A stretch of DNA of 61,768 nucleotides from a virus. Taxonomy: Duplodnaviria > Caudoviricetes. The stretch is taken from positions 1 through 61,768 of the IMG/VR virus record IMGVR_UViG_3300033388_002585. One strand, written 5' to 3'. Under the pieces are notes generated by a model. That model did no database searches. It worked only from the letters and a program-made list of their open reading frames with translations, and was not told where the DNA came from. Below are positions 10,766-54,002 of this stretch, piece by piece. Each line of letters opens with the position of its first letter. Within the stretch, counting starts at the first letter, position 1. Made by a program: the position numbers and the translations under genes.

Positions 10766-11233
10766 ATGGAGGAAATGAAGATTGAAGCAAATGTCAATGG
10801 GCGATATTATACGCTTGAGGAGCTGGAAGAAGAAGCACGATTAGATGCACAGGAAAAAGAAATTTTGGCAAGGAAGGGGATGAGAAAAGATGACACCACA
10901 ATTAACGCACGGGTGAATAGAGAAAAATGGGAAATGTTAAAATTAATGGTGCAGTTAGGTTGGGTGAAGAATTTGAGAACCGGGTTAGATGAAGCGTTAG
11001 AAATGTATATCCAGGATGTACAACTCAGAAAACGCAAAGAACGATACGTAAGCCCGGAATATGCGGTGAAGCTTGCAGAAGTGGCAGTCGAGGAAACAGA
11101 GGAAGCAGGGGGCGTAGATGAAGCAGAGGTTACAGGGGGTAAAGGTGAGGAACCCTTAGCCGTTACCAGCGCCGCAGATAAGGAGGGGGAAGAAAAGGTC
11201 AAGGCAGCAGGAGAAAACGAGGAGGGATGGTAG
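10766..11233 (+). CDS. Hypothetical protein, possible RHH-like core with acidic tail
   Basis: GGAGG RBS; TTINARVNREKWEMLK...LDEALEMYI. Confidence 0.7.
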   Translation: MEEMKIEANVNGRYYTLEELEEEARLDAQEKEILARKGMRKDDTTINARVNREKWEMLKLMVQLGWVKNLRTGLDEALEMYIQDVQLRKRKERYVSPEYAVKLAEVAVEETEEAGGVDEAEVTGGKGEEPLAVTSAADKEGEEKVKAAGENEEGW

Positions 11234-11234
11234 G

Positions 11235-11429
11235 ATGAAGAAACCAGTGATAGCCTGGAGATTACATTCTGGAGACATGACTTTTTGTGGGACTAAAATT
11301 AAAACCATGCTCCCTGTCGGTTGTATCGGTGTTTGTTTTGTATTTGAGAGCAAAAAAGCCGCTCGTAAATATTGGGGAAAAGAGGTTTCTCTGCACGAGA
11401 TTGAGATTGGGACAAAAAAACCCGAGTAA
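11235..11429 (+). CDS. Hypothetical protein
   Basis: ORF abutting the upstream stop. Confidence 0.55.
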   Translation: MKKPVIAWRLHSGDMTFCGTKIKTMLPVGCIGVCFVFESKKAARKYWGKEVSLHEIEIGTKKPE

Positions 11430-11485
11430 AAAATCTCTTGACACAGGCTTTTTTGGGTGTTATGGATAGGAAAAAGGAGGGAATT

Positions 11486-11737
11486 ATGTTGGAGAACAAG
11501 CGCAGGGGAAGGTTTAAGATAAGCATTAGGTCTATAAATGAAGATAGTTACGCAGTTCAAACAGTCTTGAGCGAGGTTATTGTTATCGAGGCGTATGTAT
11601 CTGCGATGGATGAGTGCATTCATTACGCCGGCATTTCCTCCCACTTTAGTCCCGTTGATCTTGGCGCGATAATACCAGAGTATGAGGTTGAGTTTACCAA
11701 ACACACTGGTGAGGTTAAGTTTACAAAGGTGAGGTAA
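11486..11737 (+). CDS. Hypothetical protein
   Basis: AGGAGG before MLENKRR; internal start of 11438..11737. Confidence 0.65.
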   Translation: MLENKRRGRFKISIRSINEDSYAVQTVLSEVIVIEAYVSAMDECIHYAGISSHFSPVDLGAIIPEYEVEFTKHTGEVKFTKVR

Positions 11738-11770
11738 TAGAAAGAAATAGTAAAGAGAAAGGAGTTTTGT

Positions 11771-12649
11771 ATGTATTGCTTTTATCATTCGGCAGATGCA
11801 GATGGATGTTGCTCGGGCGCGATAGTTAAGCGTGTGTTTCCTAAAGTGAAGTTAAGAGGAATTGATTATGGTCAGCAGTTTCCGTGGGAAGAAGTTGCAC
11901 CTGAAGAAACTGTGTTCATGGTCGATTTCACGTTACAGCCGTTTGAAGACATGATCAGGCTTATTAAGTACGCTGATGTTATCTGGCTTGATCATCACAT
12001 AGCGGCGATCAGAGAGCGGGATGCGTGTGAAGAAGGTTTAATATACTACGGTGAGCAAGAAACAGGGTTAGCCGGATGTGAGTTAACCTGGAATTATCTG
12101 TATCCTAATAAAACAATGCCAATGGCGGTTTATCATACGGGAAGATTTGATGTTTGGGACCATTCTCACGAGTACACTCTTCCCTTTCAATCAGGTCTAA
12201 AGCTGTACAATTCAAATCCAAATAATAACGAGTTGTGGGATGAATTGCTGGAATCCGGTGAGAATAAGTTGTTTTATGAGATTCTTGATAAGGGGCGTGT
12301 GGTTTTGGATTACATAATAGCAGATAACGAGAGATACGCGGCAGCCTGTGCGTTTGAGACCAGCTTTGAAGGATATCGTGTGTTAGCTGTCAATAAGATG
12401 CTTACTAATTCCCAGTTATTTGATTCAATGTTTGAGGAGAGTAACTGTGATTTTATGATGACGTTTGGATGGCGCCGGGGTAAGTGGCTGGTGTCTTTGT
12501 ATTCCCCTGAAGGTGGAGTTGATGTGTCTGTGATAGCAGTGAAGCTTGCCAATAAATATGGTAAAGCCGGAACTGGTGGTGGCCATGCTAATGCTGCTGG
12601 CTGTCAAGTAAATTCAGTGGAGTTTATATTAAAAAATGCAAAAAAATAA
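11771..12649 (+). CDS. DHH-family phosphoesterase (DHH/DHHA1)
   Basis: YHSADADG, VDF, LDHH, VSLYS, GGGHANAAG. Confidence 0.9.
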   Translation: MYCFYHSADADGCCSGAIVKRVFPKVKLRGIDYGQQFPWEEVAPEETVFMVDFTLQPFEDMIRLIKYADVIWLDHHIAAIRERDACEEGLIYYGEQETGLAGCELTWNYLYPNKTMPMAVYHTGRFDVWDHSHEYTLPFQSGLKLYNSNPNNNELWDELLESGENKLFYEILDKGRVVLDYIIADNERYAAACAFETSFEGYRVLAVNKMLTNSQLFDSMFEESNCDFMMTFGWRRGKWLVSLYSPEGGVDVSVIAVKLANKYGKAGTGGGHANAAGCQVNSVEFILKNAKK

Positions 12650-18082: not shown

Positions 18083-20530
18083 ATGCCTCAAAAACAAAGT
18101 ATTCAGAAACAGCATTCAGTTAATTTTTCTTACAAGTACGCACCCACGTTACAAGCATTCAATGAGTGTAAGAAGCGGATCAGGGCGGTTATAGGGCCGT
18201 TCGGCTCAGGAAAATCATCTGCAATGGTTATGGAGTTGTTCCAGGCTGGATGTAATCAGCTTCCCGATTCACATAACGTTCGCAGGTCTCGCTGGCTTGT
18301 GGTTCGTAATGTATATCGCCAATTAACAGACACCACTATCCCTACCTTTTTTGATTGGTTTCCCCCGTATTACTTTGGTTCATATAATAAAACAGAACAT
18401 CGGTATAACATGTCCATGCCTCTTTCTGATGGTACGGTATTAGACATGGAGGTATTGTTTCGAGCGCTGGATAAAGAAGAGCACGTATCGAATCTTTTGT
18501 CGCTTGAAGTATCCGGGGCATGGCTTAACGAATACCGGGAAATCCCCAAGATAATCTTTGACGCGATTGATGGTCGTATTGGTCGGTATCCTCCCCGCCG
18601 TGAAGTGGGCTGCACCTATCCTTTCACAATTATGGATTCTAACCCTCCTGACCATGAACACTGGTCGTATAAATTGTTTGAAGAAGAAAGAATGAATGAT
18701 GTGGCCCTTTATGAGAAGTATCAGATATTCCATCAGCCTTCTGGTTTATCTAATGAAGCTGAGAATTTACCTTATCTTCCAGAAGGATATTATGAAAACC
18801 TGGCTGCTGGAAAGACTCCTGATTTTGTTCGTGTGTATGTAGATGGTCAGTATGGTTATGTTCGCAGTGGCAAGCCTGTCTACCAAAACTACTCCGATGT
18901 ATTACATTTAGCCTTAAAACCTTTGTCTCCCGTAAAATCAGTTCCGATAATAATTGGTATGGACTTTGCGCTTAATCCGGCGGCTGCTTTTACCCAATTT
19001 ACTCCATCTGGAAACTTTAATGTATTGAGAGAGATTACAGGCGAGGGAATGCCTTTGCGTACTTTTGTAACTGAATTATTAATGCCTATAGTTCATGCGT
19101 ATTACCGTGGGTTCCGTATTATAATTATAGGAGATCCCAGTGGAGTTAAGAGAGCGGATACAGATGGTAGAACATGCTTCCAGGAGTTAATTGATTCAGG
19201 ATTTCATGCGATTCCAGCTAAGACTAACGCAATCCAGGCCAGGTTCGCTGCCATAGATTCTCTCCTTACCAGGATTCAAGGGGGCAAGGCAGTATTTCAG
19301 CTTGATCCCTCTTGTACTATGCTGCGGAAAGGATTTCTGGGTGAATACAAGTTCCCGGAGATTCATTCACGGCATGGATTGATGTATGCGGAGAAGCCTC
19401 TTAAGAACGAATTTTCTCACTGTTTCACAAAAGATACGTTAATAAGATTAGTTGACGGACAAAAAAGAATAAAAGACGTGATAGTCGGGGATATAGTTAA
19501 AACCCCATGGGGAAACAGGAAAGTGTTAAAGGCATGGATGACAAGAAGTAACGCAGAAATAATGGAAATAAACTTATCGGATGGTAGAAAAATTAAGTGT
19601 ACTCCTGATCATAAATTTATTTTAGCTAACAAAAGTGTTGCGTATTGCAGGTCATTGCAGTATAAGGATGTTTTATGTGATTATCATTTAAATTTAAAGG
19701 AGATAGAGACATGGAACATCCAAAGTTTATTGAATTTAAAGGAAAGAAATACAGATTATCCGACGGGGGATATTACAGGGTTGAAAACTGGGGAAAAGCC
19801 ACATGTAATTTACACAGGGCTGTTTGGGAAGATTATACTGGGAATAAAGTTCCTGAAGGATACGTTGTCCACCATATTGATAAAAATGTTTTTAATAACG
19901 ATATCACCAATCTTGAGATTATGCCCAACGGGAAACACGCATCAATGCACACCAGAGAAAGACTTGCCCATGATCCTGAATCATTTCAGCGAGCAATTAA
20001 AATTGCAAGAGAAGCTGCGAAAAAATGGCATGGATCTCCAGCCGGAATTGAGTTTCACAAAAAGCTTGGAAAGCAGGTATGGATCGGTAAAAAGAAGTAT
20101 ATTAAGATTTGTGAAGTATGTGGAGAGGAGTATTCAACGTATTTCCCAACGAGAAGCAAATGGTGTTCTCCTAAATGTCAACAAAAAGCAAGAAGGTTGC
20201 GGGGGGATGACAATGTGGAAAGAATATGTTCTGAATGTGGTGAATCGTTTATTACCAATAAATATAGTGCAACAAAAACCTGCTCTTCACGTTGTGGCGG
20301 TAAACTTGCTGCAAGAAACAGAAGATGTGTATAATATAACAGTAGATGTTGATCATGTATATTTCGCTAATGATGTTCTTGTCTTTAATTGTCATGATGC
20401 TTTACAATATGCCGGGTTAGGTTACGAGGTTATGGATCAGGCTAAAGGCTTAACGGATCTCACAGGAACAATAGTAACACGAAAAAGAGAAGGTGTTGAA
20501 AAAAAGAGAGTGATGGCTGCGTATACATAA
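18083..20530 (+). CDS. terL: Terminase large subunit with intein
   Basis: Walker A GPFGSGKS, Walker B AWLNE, DSNPP, RNase H-like IGMDF and HDALQY. Confidence 0.95.
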   Translation: MPQKQSIQKQHSVNFSYKYAPTLQAFNECKKRIRAVIGPFGSGKSSAMVMELFQAGCNQLPDSHNVRRSRWLVVRNVYRQLTDTTIPTFFDWFPPYYFGSYNKTEHRYNMSMPLSDGTVLDMEVLFRALDKEEHVSNLLSLEVSGAWLNEYREIPKIIFDAIDGRIGRYPPRREVGCTYPFTIMDSNPPDHEHWSYKLFEEERMNDVALYEKYQIFHQPSGLSNEAENLPYLPEGYYENLAAGKTPDFVRVYVDGQYGYVRSGKPVYQNYSDVLHLALKPLSPVKSVPIIIGMDFALNPAAAFTQFTPSGNFNVLREITGEGMPLRTFVTELLMPIVHAYYRGFRIIIIGDPSGVKRADTDGRTCFQELIDSGFHAIPAKTNAIQARFAAIDSLLTRIQGGKAVFQLDPSCTMLRKGFLGEYKFPEIHSRHGLMYAEKPLKNEFSHCFTKDTLIRLVDGQKRIKDVIVGDIVKTPWGNRKVLKAWMTRSNAEIMEINLSDGRKIKCTPDHKFILANKSVAYCRSLQYKDVLCDYHLNLKEIETWNIQSLLNLKERNTDYPTGDITGLKTGEKPHVIYTGLFGKIILGIKFLKDTLSTILIKMFLITISPILRLCPTGNTHQCTPEKDLPMILNHFSEQLKLQEKLRKNGMDLQPELSFTKSLESRYGSVKRSILRFVKYVERSIQRISQREANGVLLNVNKKQEGCGGMTMWKEYVLNVVNRLLPINIVQQKPALHVVAVNLLQETEDVYNITVDVDHVYFANDVLVFNCHDALQYAGLGYEVMDQAKGLTDLTGTIVTRKREGVEKKRVMAAYT
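19421..20389 (+). mobile_element. Intein in TerL nuclease domain (about 323 aa)
   Basis: SH|CFTKDTLI, block B KCTPDHKF, block F DVYNITV, end LVFN|C. Confidence 0.9.
19711..20334 (+). CDS. HNH homing endonuclease nested out of frame in the TerL intein
   Basis: AAGGAG RBS; LHRAVWE, VHHIDKNVFNNDITNLE...H; two CxxC...CS..C Zn modules. Confidence 0.85.
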   Translation: MEHPKFIEFKGKKYRLSDGGYYRVENWGKATCNLHRAVWEDYTGNKVPEGYVVHHIDKNVFNNDITNLEIMPNGKHASMHTRERLAHDPESFQRAIKIAREAAKKWHGSPAGIEFHKKLGKQVWIGKKKYIKICEVCGEEYSTYFPTRSKWCSPKCQQKARRLRGDDNVERICSECGESFITNKYSATKTCSSRCGGKLAARNRRCV

Positions 20531-45911: not shown

Positions 45912-48900
45912 ATGAACATGGATAAATTTGGATTTTCCGAACCTTTTGACCAGGAACAGCCTAACTACAATCCACCTGCCTCTGATGATCCTTTTGGTTT
46001 CTCTGAGCCTGAAGATGATTTGTCTCTTCCTATGACTTCTACTCGAGAACCTCGTGAGCCTCATGGAGTAACTCGTAGCTTTGGTGATGATTATACTCCT
46101 CCAGATGATTATACTTCTCCAATGGGTGCAATACCCATGGGTGAAGAAGGTAAATATGGCTGGGGTTTCTCGGATGAGGATCAACAAGCTGATAAATTCG
46201 GGGACAGGTTTGGATTTTCTGAGCCTGAAGCCATACCTGCGAGCGCCATACCTGTAGCCAAAAAACCCTCTTTTTTTGAGCATATAAAACAACTTCCCTC
46301 GGACATTATGGGTGGTTTAATCGATTATACTGAAATGGTTCCGCGTGAATTGCGTGCATTGCCTGGTGGCCCCAAAGCTGGCCAAGATAAAGAAGGCTTA
46401 ATGGGTCGTATGGTTACCGGGATTGAAAAATACAAAGAAACTCACCCTCAATATAAAATGCCGGAGAGCAAAGGTATATGGGGAGCAATTCATGGTGGCC
46501 TTAGAGCTGCTGCTACATCTATGGCTGCTGGTCTTCCGGGTATGGCTGCCGGGGCTGCTACTGGCGCTGCTTTGGGTGGTGGTGTTTTCTCTCCGGTTAC
46601 TGCGTTTATTGGCGGTGTCCTTGGATACGCTACCAGTGGAGCATTACAATTTGGGTTAAGTCAATATGATTCAGCCATGGAGGAAGCCCTTGATGCTGGT
46701 AAATCAATGAAACAAGCTGAATCTTATGCGTTAAAAACCTCTATATATGAAGGTGTGTTTGAGTTCGGTGCAGACCTTCTCGAAGGCGCTACGTTCAAGT
46801 TAGGTAGCATTTTTACAGCCCCCGTTAAGAATATAGTCAAAGCATCGTTGAGAGACTTATTTACCCACAATCTCAAGAATGCGGTTAAGCGTACAGCCAT
46901 GATAGCAGCTATCGAGACCCCTTCAGAAATGTTAACGGGGGGAATGCAGGCCGAGGCTGCTCATGATATAAATCTGGGCGACATGAGATTCTGGGATGCG
47001 GCTAAACAAGCTTTCGGACCTGCATTTGTGGCTTCTCTTATTTTCGGTGGAATAGGTGCTGCTGGAGTGTATAAGTATAAGAAAGGAGTCAAAGCTGCGT
47101 TAACTGATCCAAGCAAATCCTTTGAAGAACGCATGACGGCGATTAAAACTATATCAGAAGTCATTAAACCATATTCACCTGAAGCTGCCAATGCGTGGGA
47201 CATTGTAGGCTTTGATGCTGTAGCTCAGAATAAACCCATAGACCTCGATATGAAGTTTGATAGAGAAAGCGATCAAGACTACAAGGTAGCAGAGGAAAAA
47301 TTGAGACAAACTCGGCTACAACTTAATGTGCCAGAACAAAAAGTTACCAAGGAACAAAGGCAGGAATTTATAAATGAAGACTTTAAGGGTAAGACCCCTG
47401 TGGCAAAAGAAGACACCCAGCAGTTTATTGCAGTTGGTGGTCCTGCTGGAGCGGGGAAATCCACATCTATCGACAATATAATGAAGGATAATAAGCTGGA
47501 TATCGATACTTTTGTCATTATTAATCCTGATGCATACAAGGAGCGAGCTGGATATACCGGAGATCGGGCAACATTATTCCACGCAGAAAGTTCTCAGATG
47601 GCAAGAGAAGCTTTAAAACGAGCTGTGGATCAGGGATATAACGTGTTATATGATAGCCAGATGAGAAATTTTGATGTTGTCAGCGATGCTGCTGATACTG
47701 TTATTAATAATGGTGGGAATGTTGGTATAAGTTTTACTGATACTGATTATGTAACCTCTCGCGCCAATACTGAAATACGGAGAGTCAGTGGCAGGGAAGA
47801 CAGATATGTTCCTGATACCGCGATAGTTAATGGAATTAACGGAGGAGTTCCAACGCTCATTGAATTGGTAAGGAAATATGTTGACAATCCTGCTGTGATG
47901 TTTAACATTGAGTCTAATAACGTAGAGTTTGGAAATCCTGTTCCCATTGTTGTTAATGACAGGATTGTAAATCAAGAAATGCTTCATAGGCTCATGTCGA
48001 CTCCCTATGATTCGATACTAACACCGGAAGGAGGAATAAAATATGAAAGGTCCATTACTGGCGGACGAATTAATACGGAGACTATCCAACAAGCCTCAGA
48101 GGAGGTTGAAAGTAGGGTCAATGCTCGGAGAGTTGTCAAAGGCACTAAGGAAAGTCGCGCAGTCGGAAAACTCCTTGCAAGAAGAACAACCGATACCCTC
48201 GAAGACTACGTTGCCAAGATAATTGATGAAAAGCATGGCGGTATATTTGTATCTCCGAATGTAGCTGAACCGGTTGAAGGTGAATCGCGGGTAGATAGCC
48301 TTGAGAAAGCATTAAAGTATATCAAATCCACGGGGCAAGCTTCATTTGCTTCTATCATGAAGGATATAGGTAAGCGTGTAGATGTTACCGTTAAGACTTT
48401 TCCAGCTCTTGGGACATGGGGGCAAACAGTAGAGAATTCTTTATTCGCTGTTATCCCCCATGTAAATAGCTTTGATAAGCTTCGATACATGGCGGCTGCT
48501 CAAGGATTAATCGGAAGACAAAAGGCTGTCATTGCCTTCATGATGGATCGTGACGGAGATCAAAGATTGTATGAGGTAGATACTGGCAGCACAGATATAC
48601 GTGAAGTTCACGCTACATTTGATGAAATAGGCATAGAAAGCCATACCTTTGCGCTTAACAATGATGGAACTGTGAAGGCATTGGTATATGATTATGCTGG
48701 AACTGAAATAGAAAACATACAGGAGGTAGGGAAACGTTATGGCAAAGAAATTAAAATCCACAAAGGGCAAGGCGAATATCTCGCGTCCCCCGAAGAAACA
48801 AGACCCCAAAGTGCAAAGTTTTTCAGAGAGATTACAGATCGCTATGAAGAAGAATCCGAATATGGTTTGGGCCGATTCAGAAAATGGGAAAGGACTGCTC

Positions 48901-51900
48901 ATATAAGTCCACCTATTCTTCCTGTTAGCTTAAACAATAACGTGCGATATCTTAAGACAACTCCGGGTGAAGGTGAAATTCCGCCTATGTATCAGTTTTG
49001 TGATGTGTCTTCTGGCATGGGGTTTTCTATTCCTTATATGCTGAAGGGTAAGGAATTAAATAAAGCGATCAAGGATGAGCTGGATAAGATTAACGAGAAG
49101 GTTGATAAAATATCAGTAACGGCATTTGATTTGAAGCCTAAAATATCTCCTCCCACTCCCGCATTCAAGGCATGGTTCGGTGATTCAAAGATAGGAACCC
49201 CCAACAACCCCGAGATGCTATTCCACGGGACCTTCGAAACCTTTGATACATTCATCTGGGGTGACTTGGGCTTCCATTTTGGTACTGCTGAACAGGCGAT
49301 GGATCGGATACGGGGAAAACGCCAAAACCTTCCCGCAAATACATGGGAAGAAATGGTAAACCGCAAGGATACCTATATGCCTGTGTATCTGAAGATGGAA
49401 AATCCCCTTGAAATGGATGACTGTAATTGGGACGACTTCTCGCGGGTGTATGAAGAAGTCCGGGATGTCTTAAGGCGAAAGGGTGAGTTTTTTACTGAGG
49501 CTGATGCTGATTTATTGTACAATATATTTTATCGTGGTTCTACTGCTGGTAAAAACGCCATGCAGTCGAGCGATGTAAAGGTTAAGAATGAGGCCGAGAC
49601 CGAGGGGCTAAACGCTCTCCGCCAGGCTCTCCAAAACATAGGATACGATGGGATCAAGTATATTAATAGGTACGAGGGATACCGGGAGACTGGCGTAAAA
49701 AATATCCCTGAATTCCTAAAACACAAAACAAGACCAGATTACTCATACATAGTCTTCGACGCCAATCAAGTGAAGTCTGTATACAATCACGGTTCATTCT
49801 CTGATTCCAAGAACATATACCTTCAAGTTCAGCATAAGAGCGAACAGGAAATATTAAACCGTATGCGTGCTGGTGAGTTGAACCCTTCCGAAACTTTAAC
49901 AGCATATCTCCGCGGGATAGAAGAAACCAACCATATATACAAAACCATGCAGAGTTGTTTTAATCGTGTGCTTGATAAGGAAACTCGGGATCGTGTTACC
50001 CTTGAACTACAAGACGTTATAAATCTTTCTGATACGACCATTAATGTAGGTCGCAGCTTACAGGATCATGGCATAACTGAAGCTGAATTAAAGGACTATG
50101 ATATCGCCGGTCTCACCTCTATATCTATGCCTAACCTTGGTGCGTCAATTCAAATAGCCTACGATACAAACGCTGGAATAGTTGCCAAAACCACATACCA
50201 TGAATGCTTTCATCTAACCTCAGCGTGGTTACTTCCTGAGAATGATCGAAACTTCTTGTTAAGAACATACGGAAATGAAGAAGCAACGGCTGATGCATTT
50301 GCCGCATATGCTCGGTCTCATCCTGATTTTAAAGCTCCTAACTCACGTATAGAGGCAATATTCAGAACACTCAAGCGATACCTTGATTACGTTTACCATT
50401 ACTTACAAGGTCACGGATTCAACAGACCGGAAGATATATTTGGGACCATATTAACTCATGGATACCGCATGCAGCCTGACTCTATTATCAAAGCACGTAT
50501 GCTTGAGAATCTTGATACGGCCTTAGATATTAAAGCTACGCAGACAATTAATGACAGGGAATGGATAGAATCCCCCGAGAGTGCAGCATCCAAACCTCCT
50601 CTCGATGATGATCTATCTCCACGTATATTCTACAACGGTATTCAGAAAGGGTTCGGCTCTATGCCTGATCACTATATGTTTATTGATAAGCTTGTTTCTG
50701 GCTCTACTTTTCTTGTTCCAATGGTTAGCGGACAAGAAGTAAACAATCTGATACGCAAGAAGTTGGAATCATTAAGTAAACAAGCAGCTACCTTCACCAA
50801 ACCTGACATTAATAAGATACTGGATACGATACACAAGACTACCGGGAAATTAAGTATATCGAAAAAAGAAGAACAAAACAGGTTGCAGGCAGAAACTGAT
50901 GCGGCGAGAGTTAAGAGAGCAAACCAGGATACCCCTATCGTTGCATTGGATGGGACTCCCTATAAAACAAAATCTGCTGCTATGTTAGCTCGATCAAACC
51001 TCACAAAACAATACGGTCACGACTACGATGTTATAGAGCATCAAGGTGGATATGCACTACAACGTGTTGTGGATTACCAGGACCCCATTTCAAAAGATGC
51101 TGCGATAAGAGAGGCTGCGAGAACCCAAGACAAGATTAACATAGCTACGGGAGTCCAGAAGATTGGTCAGCTTATAGTAGAAGGCGAAACATTAGATATC
51201 GCTATGGCCAAAGCTGAAAAAGAATCCGCTCATGCTGAAAAGATAGGTAAAGCAGAGGGTAAGGAGGTTGAAAAAGAGAAGACCAAAAAGGCCAAGGAAA
51301 AGGCTAAAATCAAAAAGGCTGCGCTAAAAGAGATCCGGGACATGATTGACGATTTGAAAAAGGCTGGAAAAAAGGTTGATAGAATGCCTCGGAATCAGGC
51401 TAAAGCTGTACGTGAATTGTTAGCCGATATTGATCTCAAGAAACCTACAAAGAAAACGTTGAGCAGACTAAACAACACCAGGAAATTCTTAGAGGATAAT
51501 CCGGAATATTCAACCATGCCTCCTCATGTCATTGAGGAATTACGGAGACTTGAGTTAAAGGCTTTCAGGGACTTGGATATAGATGATATGAGGCTGATCC
51601 ATGACGCTATATTACACCACATTCACTTAGCCTCAACCATAAACAGGATAAAAGTAAACCAGAAGAATCGAACTTTTACTGAAACCGTATCAGACATACT
51701 TGGATCACTGAAACCATCTAAAGAAATACATAGCGAACTAATGGCGCAAACTGAAAAGCCTACCCCATACAAAAACTTATGGGATTCAATAACTTACCTG
51801 TTTGGGCTGGCTCAAGAACATTATGATTTTATTATCGAAAAGGTTGCTGGAATTAACAGCACTTTTCATTATGTTTTTTACAAGGATGTTAAAAGAGGCG

Positions 51901-54002
51901 ATGATAAACGAGTCGAGCATGAGTATGCGACATGGGATTTATTAAAGCAACGCCTCAAGGAAAATGGTTTTGATCCAGCAAAAGTGGGTGGTGATGTAAG
52001 CGCATGGATGAATGAGAGAATAACCACAGCAGGGTTTGAATTAACTCGTGGACATCGTATGGCCTTATATCGTCATTGGTTAAATGCGGACAACCATAGG
52101 TCTCTCACAGATATAGCAGGAGGTTTCACTCTTCCAACCAATAAAGACCCTAACAAGATATACAATATGACGGAAGGTCAACTTGAAGAAATTATTGGAG
52201 ATTTAAGCGAGCAGGAAAGGATATTTGCTGGTGATGCTGTTACTAAATTGTTTGAGGAACAGGGCAAGGCTATGGCCGAGGTATTCTATAAACTAAACGG
52301 ATATGAATTAAAACTCGTTGACTATTATTACCCCAAACAAGTTGCTCCCCTTGCCCGTGGACTGGATATTTCTCAAGAAGAAGCTCGGAAGGAATTTGAA
52401 AGGAAATATTTAAGAGTAGGTGTACCAAAGGGAATGACCAAAGAACGCCAAGGAGTAATAGTTCCCATAAAACTTAACTCGTTACCATATGATATCAACA
52501 AGAGTGTAATGCAGGCCTCAGCGTATATCAATTTGGAAATCCCCATATCCAATGCCGCGAGAATACTGTTTGACAAAGGAAAGGTAGATAAGAAGACAAA
52601 TAAACGTACGCTGGGATTCAGACAGGAATTCATAAACAGATACGGGGAAAAAATGTTCAAGGAAATAGAAAAGGGTCTCCGTGATATCTCGGGTGAATGG
52701 GAAAGTTATACCATAGTTGAAGAAGGGTTAATGAAAATGAAGAACCACTTGTCAACTGCAATCCTGGGACTCAATCCGTTTGTTATGTTAAAGCAGCTTA
52801 TGTCCTTCCCTTTATATCTTCCTTACGTTAACTTTAACCATTTATCTCAAGGGTTAATGGACGCCATAGTGAACCCCACACAAACTAACAATGAGATTAA
52901 AGTGTTTTCTCCTGAATACCGCCGCCGAGTTGAGGGTGGATTTAGTCGTGATGTTATGGATATCTTCAAGACAGGTATGGTTAAGCAGATGTACGGGGGT
53001 AAGGCTTCAATCCCTGAACGAGTTATGGGCGGCATTAAGATGTTCGATCAAGCGGCTGTTATGTCTGGAATGAGAGGAGCGAGAAACCAGGTATTGGCAG
53101 AATTTGAACAGGGTAAGTTAAGCAAAGAAGTGAAGGAAGGGTTGGATCTAACCGATGCTGATATCCCCAACCTCACACCCGAAGAAAAAATGAAGTATGC
53201 TTATGAGTACGGAGATTATGTTACCGAGCGATCACAGCCCATGTTTTCTCCTGAACATCGTTCAGCTTTATCTCGTGGAGGTCCCTGGGTTCAGCTATTC
53301 ACCATGTTTGGTTCCTTCACTAACCAAGCCTATAACCTCATCCGTCGAAGTGTAGCTGAATGTTCTCGAACAGGAAGCAAGGAATCGTACAGTAAGCTGG
53401 CTAAAGTTTTGTTCCTGCTCCTTGTTGTTAATACTCTCGGAATCATGGCGATTGATTGGCTTCGTGATGAACTATACCAGCGTAAGAAACAATACCGGAG
53501 ATCATTATGGCGTGGTGTTCTCGATAACTGGGCCGGATACATGTTCTTCGTCCGTGACCTTGAAAAAGCTATATCGAGTAAGATTGAGAAAGGTCCGTGG
53601 TATGGATACGATGTCAGCTTACCCATAAATAAAGTACCTGAATTATTTGTAGGTGCAGTGAGCAGCGGCGTGGGTGCGTTAATAGATAAATCTGCTGGGC
53701 AGAGAAAAAAGAAGGCGTTAAGATTTGTGGATGACTCTCTATCCCTCTGGGCAATGAGTAAGGGAATCCCATACCAGACCCCCAAGAACCTGGTGCAGTC
53801 TGGCTACAAGGGATTCAAAAAAATTGAACGTCGTAAAAAGATGCAGGATATTCTTAGAGGTAAACGGAAACAAGTAGCTCCAACGGATAAGTCCGGGTTC
53901 TCTGAACCAGTCTTTATGGAATCTCAGCAACCAGCACAGCGACAACCAGCGCGGGGAACACCAGAAACAGAAGACAGGTTCGGGTTCTCTGAGCCACGGT
54001 AA
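45912..54002 (+). CDS. Giant polyvalent ejection protein (zeta-like P-loop kinase, SAM-lyase-like, ART-like, HExxH peptidase)
   Basis: GGPAGAGKST/INPDAYK/FHAESS; GTW...ENS...QKAV; FKAWFG/FHGT/GFHFG/VYL...NPL/GYDGI/YIVF...QVKS; HECFH; large helical C-terminus. Confidence 0.85.
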   Translation: MNMDKFGFSEPFDQEQPNYNPPASDDPFGFSEPEDDLSLPMTSTREPREPHGVTRSFGDDYTPPDDYTSPMGAIPMGEEGKYGWGFSDEDQQADKFGDRFGFSEPEAIPASAIPVAKKPSFFEHIKQLPSDIMGGLIDYTEMVPRELRALPGGPKAGQDKEGLMGRMVTGIEKYKETHPQYKMPESKGIWGAIHGGLRAAATSMAAGLPGMAAGAATGAALGGGVFSPVTAFIGGVLGYATSGALQFGLSQYDSAMEEALDAGKSMKQAESYALKTSIYEGVFEFGADLLEGATFKLGSIFTAPVKNIVKASLRDLFTHNLKNAVKRTAMIAAIETPSEMLTGGMQAEAAHDINLGDMRFWDAAKQAFGPAFVASLIFGGIGAAGVYKYKKGVKAALTDPSKSFEERMTAIKTISEVIKPYSPEAANAWDIVGFDAVAQNKPIDLDMKFDRESDQDYKVAEEKLRQTRLQLNVPEQKVTKEQRQEFINEDFKGKTPVAKEDTQQFIAVGGPAGAGKSTSIDNIMKDNKLDIDTFVIINPDAYKERAGYTGDRATLFHAESSQMAREALKRAVDQGYNVLYDSQMRNFDVVSDAADTVINNGGNVGISFTDTDYVTSRANTEIRRVSGREDRYVPDTAIVNGINGGVPTLIELVRKYVDNPAVMFNIESNNVEFGNPVPIVVNDRIVNQEMLHRLMSTPYDSILTPEGGIKYERSITGGRINTETIQQASEEVESRVNARRVVKGTKESRAVGKLLARRTTDTLEDYVAKIIDEKHGGIFVSPNVAEPVEGESRVDSLEKALKYIKSTGQASFASIMKDIGKRVDVTVKTFPALGTWGQTVENSLFAVIPHVNSFDKLRYMAAAQGLIGRQKAVIAFMMDRDGDQRLYEVDTGSTDIREVHATFDEIGIESHTFALNNDGTVKALVYDYAGTEIENIQEVGKRYGKEIKIHKGQGEYLASPEETRPQSAKFFREITDRYEEESEYGLGRFRKWERTAHISPPILPVSLNNNVRYLKTTPGEGEIPPMYQFCDVSSGMGFSIPYMLKGKELNKAIKDELDKINEKVDKISVTAFDLKPKISPPTPAFKAWFGDSKIGTPNNPEMLFHGTFETFDTFIWGDLGFHFGTAEQAMDRIRGKRQNLPANTWEEMVNRKDTYMPVYLKMENPLEMDDCNWDDFSRVYEEVRDVLRRKGEFFTEADADLLYNIFYRGSTAGKNAMQSSDVKVKNEAETEGLNALRQALQNIGYDGIKYINRYEGYRETGVKNIPEFLKHKTRPDYSYIVFDANQVKSVYNHGSFSDSKNIYLQVQHKSEQEILNRMRAGELNPSETLTAYLRGIEETNHIYKTMQSCFNRVLDKETRDRVTLELQDVINLSDTTINVGRSLQDHGITEAELKDYDIAGLTSISMPNLGASIQIAYDTNAGIVAKTTYHECFHLTSAWLLPENDRNFLLRTYGNEEATADAFAAYARSHPDFKAPNSRIEAIFRTLKRYLDYVYHYLQGHGFNRPEDIFGTILTHGYRMQPDSIIKARMLENLDTALDIKATQTINDREWIESPESAASKPPLDDDLSPRIFYNGIQKGFGSMPDHYMFIDKLVSGSTFLVPMVSGQEVNNLIRKKLESLSKQAATFTKPDINKILDTIHKTTGKLSISKKEEQNRLQAETDAARVKRANQDTPIVALDGTPYKTKSAAMLARSNLTKQYGHDYDVIEHQGGYALQRVVDYQDPISKDAAIREAARTQDKINIATGVQKIGQLIVEGETLDIAMAKAEKESAHAEKIGKAEGKEVEKEKTKKAKEKAKIKKAALKEIRDMIDDLKKAGKKVDRMPRNQAKAVRELLADIDLKKPTKKTLSRLNNTRKFLEDNPEYSTMPPHVIEELRRLELKAFRDLDIDDMRLIHDAILHHIHLASTINRIKVNQKNRTFTETVSDILGSLKPSKEIHSELMAQTEKPTPYKNLWDSITYLFGLAQEHYDFIIEKVAGINSTFHYVFYKDVKRGDDKRVEHEYATWDLLKQRLKENGFDPAKVGGDVSAWMNERITTAGFELTRGHRMALYRHWLNADNHRSLTDIAGGFTLPTNKDPNKIYNMTEGQLEEIIGDLSEQERIFAGDAVTKLFEEQGKAMAEVFYKLNGYELKLVDYYYPKQVAPLARGLDISQEEARKEFERKYLRVGVPKGMTKERQGVIVPIKLNSLPYDINKSVMQASAYINLEIPISNAARILFDKGKVDKKTNKRTLGFRQEFINRYGEKMFKEIEKGLRDISGEWESYTIVEEGLMKMKNHLSTAILGLNPFVMLKQLMSFPLYLPYVNFNHLSQGLMDAIVNPTQTNNEIKVFSPEYRRRVEGGFSRDVMDIFKTGMVKQMYGGKASIPERVMGGIKMFDQAAVMSGMRGARNQVLAEFEQGKLSKEVKEGLDLTDADIPNLTPEEKMKYAYEYGDYVTERSQPMFSPEHRSALSRGGPWVQLFTMFGSFTNQAYNLIRRSVAECSRTGSKESYSKLAKVLFLLLVVNTLGIMAIDWLRDELYQRKKQYRRSLWRGVLDNWAGYMFFVRDLEKAISSKIEKGPWYGYDVSLPINKVPELFVGAVSSGVGALIDKSAGQRKKKALRFVDDSLSLWAMSKGIPYQTPKNLVQSGYKGFKKIERRKKMQDILRGKRKQVAPTDKSGFSEPVFMESQQPAQRQPARGTPETEDRFGFSEPR
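48043..48222 (+). CDS. Nested +1-frame ORF A (59 aa), candidate antidote
   Basis: AGGAGG at 48029-48034, 8-nt spacer, ATG; MKGPLLADELIRRLSNKPQRRLKVGSMLGELSKALRKVAQ... Confidence 0.55.
   Translation: MKGPLLADELIRRLSNKPQRRLKVGSMLGELSKALRKVAQSENSLQEEQPIPSKTTLPR
48739..48906 (+). CDS. Nested +1-frame ORF B (55 aa), candidate antidote
   Basis: AGGAGGT at 48721-48727, 11-nt spacer, ATG; MAKKLKSTKGKANISRPPKKQDPKVQSFSERLQIAMKKNPNMVWAD... Confidence 0.5.
   Translation: MAKKLKSTKGKANISRPPKKQDPKVQSFSERLQIAMKKNPNMVWADSENGKGLLI

Follow-up and report, generated by a model that had tools for sequence, protein, structure and literature searches.

A reading frame nested in a polyvalent virion-protein gene

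We analysed the complete virus record IMGVR_UViG_3300033388_002585 from IMG/VR, a sequence of 61,768 bp with direct terminal repeats (hereafter, the window). Matches to PHROGs families identified it as a tailed phage (Duplodnaviria; Caudoviricetes), with genes for the terminase, the major head protein and structural proteins on the + strand. Downstream of these lies the gene of a 2696-amino-acid (aa) virion protein (the host gene and host protein, respectively) and, nested in it on the same strand, a 59-codon open reading frame (ORF) in the +1 frame, which we denote ORF A and which overlaps the end of a Zeta/PezT/AvrRxo1-like kinase module (Table 1). Judging from homologous sequences, ORF A is very probably a real same-strand overlapping (overprinted) coding gene, and we tentatively propose that its product could be an antidote to the kinase.

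In the host protein, Pfam searches detected a Zeta_toxin domain at aa 498-646 (PF06414, E 3e-16, 59.9 bits against a cut-off of 22.3) and an ART-PolyVal domain at aa 1100-1292. The protein also contains a widespread module to which no Pfam name is attached, and a C-terminal region matching phrog_28077 and phrog_9880. Given the combination of Zeta_toxin and ART-PolyVal domains, this large, multidomain phage protein with several conflict-related domains fits the definition of polyvalent proteins by Iyer et al. 2017 (PMC5512222). That paper describes zeta-toxin-like kinase domains in polyvalent proteins and proposes a role in weakening the cell wall of the recipient (PMC5512222).

The kinase module consists of the Pfam match and a C-terminal strand-plus-helix sub-domain located outside the Pfam envelope. 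In the AlphaFold2 (AF2) model of host aa 480-756 (mean predicted local distance difference test score, pLDDT, 91; predicted template modelling score, pTM, 0.87), residues 230-234 of this sub-domain (host I-K-Y-E-R) form a strand and residues 243-248 and 250-276 form helices; pLDDT is at least 90 up to residue 260, 66 at residues 261-270 and 48 at residues 271-277. The best Foldseek matches in the PDB were zeta (3q8x/1gvn), AvrRxo1-ORF1 (4z8t and others) and PezT (2p5t), with E values from 4e-11 to 9e-9; the match to AvrRxo1-ORF1 had an E value of 2.5e-9 and a query-based TM-score (TMq) of 0.60. The alignment of the kinase modules contains invariant G31/G36/K37 (Walker A) and R144 and near-invariant D61 and R140/R152, the Asp standing 24 residues after the Walker-A G/K; these positions presumably correspond to the numbered residues of zeta. 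Thus, the P-loop fold, the Walker A motif, the Asp and Arg residues and the Pfam match all assign the module to the Zeta/PezT kinase family. An HMMER search with host aa 480-1000 against 1.84 billion representative proteins yielded 790 proteins at E<=1e-3, and the matches of the kinase part extend to query residue 260-283 (host aa 739-762), well past the Pfam envelope. The motif [KE]-G-G-x-[KR]-Y-E-R, followed by a helix, is common to the aligned relatives of the host protein. The subfamily also includes stand-alone kinases (P0006, P0008, P0011, P0012 and P0030), of which P0011 and P0030 terminate about 25-30 residues past the Y-E-R of the motif.

ORF A begins within this motif. A first-pass annotation of the sequence had described a perfect AGGAGG, an 8-nt spacer and an ATG at 48043 opening a 59-codon +1-frame ORF where the host frame reads EGGIKYE; the sequence and the ORF list contain all of this. 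Specifically, the Shine-Dalgarno (SD) sequence is spelled by host E-G-G (GAA GGA GGA) and the ATG by Y-E (TAT GAA), within host residues E-G-G-I-K-Y-E (aa 706-712), the spacer is AATAAAAT, and a +1-frame TAA at 48037-48039 lies two codons upstream of the ATG. The codons GAA GGA GGA are ordinary in the host gene, in which GGA accounts for 33% of the Gly codons and GAA for 68% of the Glu codons; GGAGGA encodes 2 of the 21 Gly-Gly pairs. The same AGGAGG, at a spacing within the range of 4-9 nt and specifically at 6-8 nt, is found before the ATG of five long phage ORFs (at 24158, 31653, 32656, 33242 and 43792), indicating that the SD of ORF A is of the kind used by the ribosomes of the phage host. 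ORF A starts at residue 232 of the kinase model, so its first ~30 codons overlap the folded strand and helices (pLDDT at least 90), and its last ~30 codons overlap the low-confidence helix and the linker. Accordingly, the earlier placement of the ORF in the linker right after the kinase domain applies to its second half and not to the first.

Within the window alone, the signal is weak. In 1000 synonymous-codon shuffles of the host gene, 2.05 alternative-frame ATG ORFs of at least 59 codons were expected, compared to the 2 observed. The combination of AGGAGG, 5-10 nt and an out-of-frame ATG ORF of at least 59 codons was reached in 1% of the shuffles (6.5% for at least 40 codons), and even this figure carries little weight because the thresholds were set post hoc and the coding DNA of the phage is ~7 times as long as the host gene.

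Conservation of ORF A in homologous kinase modules

Several searches returned little or nothing: comparison with the DNA of isolated phages detected no similarity to the window, tblastn of the kinase module against phages and plasmids at 1e-8 and a single-protein scan of viral contigs gave no match, and a word-index protein search with host aa 480-900 recovered only the window's own cluster and one weak match. Pattern scans identified 23 non-window records with a related kinase. Narrower alignments were used for scanning where the alignments were too variable; the metagenome scan contributed 2 loci and the genome scan 3. Excluded from the analysis were two DNA-identical duplicates of L022, one locus (L034) cut by the contig end after 92 matched residues, and 10 distant kinases that end before the C-terminal sub-domain and hence have no homologous position. 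The 10 loci with a full module (L021, L003, L026, L023, L027, L025, L024, L028, L032 and L022) were assessable, making eleven lineages with the window, all uncultivated viruses or contigs of metagenome-assembled genomes (MAGs). The 10 modules share 26-39% protein identity with the window, and their GC content ranges from 0.36 to 0.65. In blastn comparisons among the loci, no DNA similarity was detected in the ORF region, and the only two inter-locus matches, both weak, lie upstream within the kinase.

All 10 assessable modules contain a +1 ORF of 53-81 codons at the homologous position. A +1 stop is possible only where an L/I/V/M codon ending in TA or TG precedes A or G, so that a hydrophilic host stretch is partly open by default. 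To account for this, we calculated the probability that 50 codons are open given the host amino acids and the stop rates at stop-capable site classes elsewhere in the same gene. This probability ranges from 0.002 to 0.74 per locus (0.032 in the window), and multiplied over the 10 non-window loci it comes to 2.8e-9. The null model is well calibrated: at 18,394 control positions in the same genes, the predicted open fraction was 0.107 and the observed one 0.108, with agreement in every bin. A composition artefact was rejected on these grounds.

These statistics were framed after the first six loci had been seen, which is mitigated by the four loci inspected once the pattern was known and by a positional scan. 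The four later loci (L024, L028, L032 and L022) all contain the ORF (product of probabilities 8e-4). The scan covered offsets from -700 to +800 codons in the 11 loci including the window. At offset 0, all 11 are open for at least 50 codons in the +1 frame and none in the +2 frame; at 10-codon steps, the maximum elsewhere is 4/11, apart from offset +10 (8/11), and in the single-codon histogram at least 5 loci are open at only 22 of the 1500 offsets. Among the distant kinases without the C-terminal sub-domain, nine were scanned (L015, with the same match as L014, was left out); four of these have a +1 ORF of at least 50 codons near the match end, with no consistent nested ORF and no shared position or SD.

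The start of the frame is conserved as well. A start codon is present in all 10 non-window loci, ATG in nine and GTG in one (L021), and in nine of them it stands at exactly the homologous host codon. In eight homologs, the ATG is formed by the homologous Tyr codon TAT and the G of the next codon; in L021, Ser AGT plus G gives GTG at the same codon position, and in L022, which lacks the host motif, the ATG is seven codons upstream. Under synonymous resampling, the probability of a start is 0.24-0.68 per locus, with a product of 1.2e-4 for 10/10. The homologous Tyr is encoded by TAT in 8/8 cases, including L025 and L032, in which TAC accounts for 76-80% of the Tyr codons before G. A codon-context bias was considered and rejected, as TAT is not generally preferred before G.

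Furthermore, all homologs contain a purine-rich SD-like run (AAAGGAG, AAGGGGG, GGGAGG, GAGGTG, GAGGAG or AGGAGG) 4-12 nt from the start. Compared with synonymously resampled sequences, the 10 non-window loci have stronger SD hybridisation energies (Fisher p 0.002). Around the start (-25..+20), there is less folding than in other segments of the same loci (Fisher p 2e-4, with the window left out), in a comparison that is not conditioned on the amino-acid sequence. Thus, ORF A and its homologs have their own start and ribosome-binding site and are open beyond what the host sequences predict, as expected of an overprinted gene. The first-pass annotation had regarded an unconserved ribosome-binding site and ORF in homologs as evidence against its proposal; the opposite was found, with ORF, start and SD-like run present in 10/10, and this conservation lends good support to a real nested gene that goes with the zeta-like kinase module.

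The Zeta_toxin domain is present in all 10 homologous host proteins, and the other domains vary: RadC/JAB in two, an Eco57I-type methylase in two, a ResIII helicase and DUF7699, compared to ART-PolyVal in the window. Because the kinase is constant and its neighbours differ, ORF A travels with the kinase module.

Regarding the provenance of these loci, L019, L022 and L033 share the identical 6.6 kb of polyvalent-gene DNA, located in a 55-kb IMG/VR contig, a 371-kb metagenome contig and a 188-kb Syntrophorhabdus MAG contig, which suggests that this lineage is an integrated element and offers Syntrophorhabdus as a hint to the host. L032 lies in a Thermodesulfobacteriota MAG contig.

The product of ORF A and its possible role

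The AF2 model of the ORF A peptide consists of two helices (residues 4-15 and 24-45) and a disordered P/K-rich tail, at pLDDT 69. The peptide contains neither a lipobox nor a transmembrane segment. The first-pass annotation had called it helical and amphipathic; the model lends the first term weak support, and the window peptide was not more amphipathic than the null.

We then compared the composition of the 11 peptides with 1500 synonymous null sets, exactly sampled with the frame forced open. The hydrophobic fraction is 0.19-0.28 in all 11 peptides, compared to null means from 0.11 in GC-rich loci to 0.38 in AT-rich ones, and its standard deviation across loci is 0.028 vs 0.091 in the null, with none of the 1500 null sets equally tight. 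Three further features are lower than in every one of the 1500 null sets: the content of Pro and Gly (0.114 vs 0.163), the net positive charge (0.066 vs 0.151) and the content of Cys and Trp (0.005 vs 0.034). Synonymous codon choice in the host frame thus constrains the composition of the +1 peptide, which argues that the peptide itself matters and not merely its translation; in this exploratory test, ORF A shows the selection on its product that is expected of an overprinted gene.

What this product does is less clear-cut. Among the possible roles, we tentatively favour that of an antidote to the kinase in the producing cell, by analogy with related kinases: the three closest solved folds have each been crystallised with a small proteic inhibitor, according to the titles of the PDB entries. 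Ribosomes would initiate at the ATG of ORF A, directed by its own SD within the virion-protein gene, and the late mRNA that encodes the kinase would thus also yield a small protein, helical for the most part. This protein would bind the kinase module and hold it inactive in the producing cell. Because the peptide is not covalently part of the virion protein, the injected kinase would then be free to act in the next host. Given that the kinase is internal to the host protein, a downstream partner could be encoded only in another frame, and it is possible that a toxin-antitoxin pair was absorbed into the virion protein.

Several observations weigh against an antidote. The 11 peptides align poorly, with Met1 as the only invariant residue and a mean column identity of 23%. 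A specific binder would usually be more conserved, but such low conservation could also result from fast co-evolution. Searched against all PDB chains, the 11-peptide profile had its best match, to an unrelated protein, at E 0.76, and it matched no Arc1 chain at E<=10. There is no similarity of the 11 peptides to epsilon, PezA or Arc1; in Pfam, they gave no credible match (single-member matches at E>=0.026) and no antitoxin family at E<=1. Amphipathicity exceeds the null only weakly (Fisher p 0.02-0.03; p 0.38 for the window peptide), and the composition tests were exploratory, having been devised after the peptides had been seen. That a lytic infection requires an antidote is argued and not observed, and the toxicity of the kinase is putative. 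Finally, nested ORFs at module ends may serve a general purpose and not kinase neutralisation, considering that a second such frame in the host gene, ORF B, adjoins a module that is not a kinase.

More generally, no relatives of the peptides were found in sequence or structure collections. The ESM Atlas provided no usable match to the ORF A peptide, and in a collection of 5.8 billion predicted proteins we detected none of the 11 peptides and no relative of 29-142 aa; none of the 11 ORFs had been called as a gene in that collection.

The most serious alternative is that ORF A is indeed translated and tied to the kinase module, with a product that does something other than inhibit the kinase. 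Candidates include a chaperone for folding, packaging or ejection, a protein that modulates which substrate is chosen, or a small hitch-hiker with an independent anti-defence or regulatory function. The evidence from conservation, from the start and SD and from composition applies equally to such roles, and the lack of similarity between known antitoxins and the ORF A peptides is compatible with them. ORF B, found at its non-kinase module in 6/7 loci and encoding a very different, hydrophilic product, hints at a general role. However, ORF A follows the kinase module through unrelated architectures, the zeta, PezT and AvrRxo1-ORF1 folds are each paired with a proteic inhibitor, and zero positive evidence was obtained for any specific alternative role. 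Because ORF B equally allows a general, non-neutralising role, we consider another function a substantial possibility alongside the antidote.

It appears improbable that translation of the +1 ORF matters through its effects on ribosome traffic, mRNA stability or coupling to a downstream start, with no importance of the product itself. The low conservation of the peptide sequence and the conserved ORF length would fit such a role, but synonymous choices constrain the hydrophobic, Pro/Gly, charge and Cys/Trp content (0/1500 null sets in each case), which points to selection on the product. Coupling by termination and reinitiation was rejected, as there is no host-frame ATG near the ORF A stop and the next host-frame Met stands ~45 residues later.

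Programmed ribosomal frameshifting, by which the +1 frame would be reached from the host frame to yield a truncated protein comprising the N-terminal region and the kinase with an alternative tail, is very unlikely. An SD-like run within a gene can stimulate frameshifting, as in prfB and dnaX, and ORF A begins at the module end. Nevertheless, a frameshift has no need of the start codon found in 10/10 homologs against the joint expectation given above, and the +1 stop located 1-8 codons upstream of the start in most loci leaves almost no room for a shift site. Moreover, in the DNA inspected around the homologous sites, no slippery pattern of the X-XXY-YYZ type is common to the loci, and the spacing of 4-12 nt between SD and start is typical of initiation. 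Equally hard to sustain is the view that ORF A is a chance open frame, in which the conserved host residues E/K-G-G-x-K-Y-E happen to spell an SD and an ATG, a hydrophilic linker rarely gives +1 stops because these are limited to L/I/V/M codons, and the ORF length is ordinary for the window: it is contradicted by the joint probability of ~3e-9 over 10 loci under a calibrated null conditioned on the host amino acids, by the positional scan that peaks only at the ORF A site, by TAT at 8/8 homologous Tyr codons even in TAC-preferring genomes, and by the constrained composition of the peptides.

With respect to gene arrangement, the nearest structural analogue of ORF A is nesting of the Rz/Rz1 type, and its nearest functional analogue is provided by the MuF toxins. 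Lambda Rz1 inside Rz and phiX174 E inside D are small +1-frame genes nested in a gene on the same strand, with their own SD and start; as proposed for ORF A, the nested gene is functionally linked to the gene that contains it. ORF A differs from both in family and predicted role, in its location in a modular polyvalent gene and in travelling with one module, and a second such ORF adjoins it. The epsilon/zeta and PezA/PezT systems share the kinase fold of the module and a small helical protein (in ORF A, a predicted one) encoded with the kinase. In epsilon/zeta-type systems, the antitoxin covers the nucleotide site of the kinase and relieves its toxicity on co-expression. The antitoxin of these systems is a separate gene upstream of the toxin, whereas ORF A occupies the +1 frame at the 3' end of the kinase coding sequence itself, so that the arrangement of two adjacent genes with the antitoxin first is absent; the ORF A peptides, furthermore, lack the similarity to epsilon or PezA noted above, and the kinase here is one module of the virion protein and not a free toxin.

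AvrRxo1 is a delivered zeta-like NAD kinase effector whose antidote stays with the producer; the gene of its antitoxin/chaperone, arc1 (81-98 aa), immediately follows avrRxo1 (PMC4938570). In standing 3' of the kinase, arc1 resembles ORF A, although Arc1 is a separate, non-overlapping ORF, and delivery in our case would be by the phage virion and not by type III secretion. The MuF polymorphic toxins of temperate phages (PMC5576092) combine a virion-associated multidomain protein carrying a toxic domain with a cognate immunity gene; the toxin domain is C-terminal there and the immunity gene follows the stop codon, whereas the kinase of the window is internal.

Iyer et al. 2017 (PMC5512222) describe no nested gene in their main text, where the terms ‘overlapping’, ‘frameshift’ and ‘immunity protein’ have 0 occurrences, the 8 occurrences of ‘antitoxin’ shown all concern something other than the kinase, and the kinase is treated solely as a domain that weakens the cell wall. 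Among literature listings and abstracts, we found no precedent, for zeta kinases or for polyvalent proteins, of an antidote encoded in a nested or overlapping frame, and nothing relevant on overprinting with an antitoxin or on conserved alternative-frame genes in phages.

Small ORFs were also observed next to distant, stand-alone zeta-like kinase genes in viral contigs, where same-strand ORFs of 44-84 aa lie 3' of the kinase (Table 1). One of them overlaps the kinase stop by 11 nt, and two are preceded by TAGGAG or AGGAGGGG. This toxin-first order is that of avrRxo1:arc1.

In bacteria and phages, out-of-frame nested genes have rarely been demonstrated, and annotations hardly ever include them. 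The comparative support for ORF A is unusually clean, coming from unrelated DNA with a GC content of 36-65% and a calibrated null, and the position of the ORF, where a toxin-type kinase domain ends within an injected virion protein, is biologically meaningful. If the product is indeed an antidote, overprinting it on the very domain that it neutralises would represent a new architecture of toxin neutralisation and would account for the ability of phages to have toxin domains in the interior of polyvalent proteins.

ORF B and other features of the window

Further nested ORFs had been implied by the first-pass annotation, and the next one along the host gene, ORF B, located at the end of the unnamed module, is kept in most homologs. 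The unnamed module is characterised by the motifs S-P-N..E-N, G-D-W-x-D-G-A-E-N-S, N-Q-K-A-V and G-x-G-E-F-x-G..T-R and occurs in many of the best 150 of the 790 HMMER matches, where it is either part of a long polyvalent protein or forms a stand-alone protein of ~230-250 aa. We found 9 loci for this module (L035-L042 among them), two of which encode the same protein and one of which is partial. In 6 of the 7 distinct assessable loci, a +1 ORF of 60-79 codons has its ATG at exactly the homologous Tyr/His codon; the remaining locus does not keep this ORF. Over the six loci, the product of the open-frame probabilities is 1.4e-5 and that of the start probabilities 0.0098, and the offset scan reaches a maximum of 7/8; two loci have a weak SD or none. 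Hydrophilic and of low complexity, the products have in common a C-terminal G-x-G-F-x-I-like motif at a place without conservation in the host frame. From these sequence comparisons, ORF B supports the idea that modules of polyvalent genes may carry their own nested partners; it suggests a general phenomenon, open to systematic search.

Taken further, each effector module of a polyvalent virion protein might have its own small overprinted gene, as ORF A does for the kinase and ORF B for the next module, and these genes would form a hidden layer in which each encodes a cognate antidote or handler, a proposal that we regard as speculative. On that proposal, the hydrophilic ‘linkers’ between modules could, somewhat doubtfully, be other-frame shadows of nested genes. 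The modules might conceivably have been captured as cassettes of a toxin and its downstream partner by loss of a stop codon. Nested partners could, on the same uncertain footing, let a phage build a multi-toxin protein in the producer cell and deliver it unprotected to the next host.

Across the host gene, we identified 7 ATG-started alternative-frame ORFs of at least 50 codons, all in the +1 frame, compared to 3.3 expected; 1.1% of the shuffles reach 7.

Table 1. Coordinates of the features discussed in the text; positions are those of the window except in the last row
Feature	Position	Strand	Remarks
Zeta/PezT/AvrRxo1-like kinase module	47349..48176	+	host aa 480-755; AF2 model, Foldseek
Shine-Dalgarno AGGAGG	48029-48034	+	host codons for E-G-G of [KE]-G-G-x-[KR]-Y-E-R
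ORF A	48043..48222	+	59 codons, +1 frame, TAA 48220-48222, overlaps host aa 711-771
Host gene	45912..54002	+	8,091 nt, 2696-aa polyvalent virion protein, ends the structural block
Unnamed module	48219-48900	+	host aa ~770-995, without Pfam name
ORF B	48739..48906	+	55 codons, +1 frame, host aa 943-998, end of the second, unnamed module
Further +1 ORFs of at least 50 codons in the host gene	46087, 46492, 52891, 53197, 53467	+	besides ORF A and ORF B
F-G-F-S-E-P copies	45912-46250 and 53900-54002	+	host aa 1-110 and 2660-2696
Small ORFs with perfect AGGAGG	11235-11429 (64 aa); 11486-11737 (83 aa)	+	ORF list
Small ORFs after stand-alone kinases	L011/L029 3108-3290 (L011 coordinates); L012 3164-3418; L018 3193-3327	same strand	

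Among sequencing runs, no RNA run with this sequence was listed, and one DNA run contained two short fragments identical to the window, with zero variants. At its termini, the polyvalent protein carries copies of an F-G-F-S-E-P motif (one of them G-F-S-E-P), three near the N-terminus and two at the extreme C-terminus, and the relative P0005 has N-terminal F-G-F-[KV]-E-[DE] repeats; the motif may be a processing, packaging or docking signal. Elsewhere in the window, at 11156-11788, two small ORFs on the + strand lie opposite a 210-aa ORF on the minus strand.

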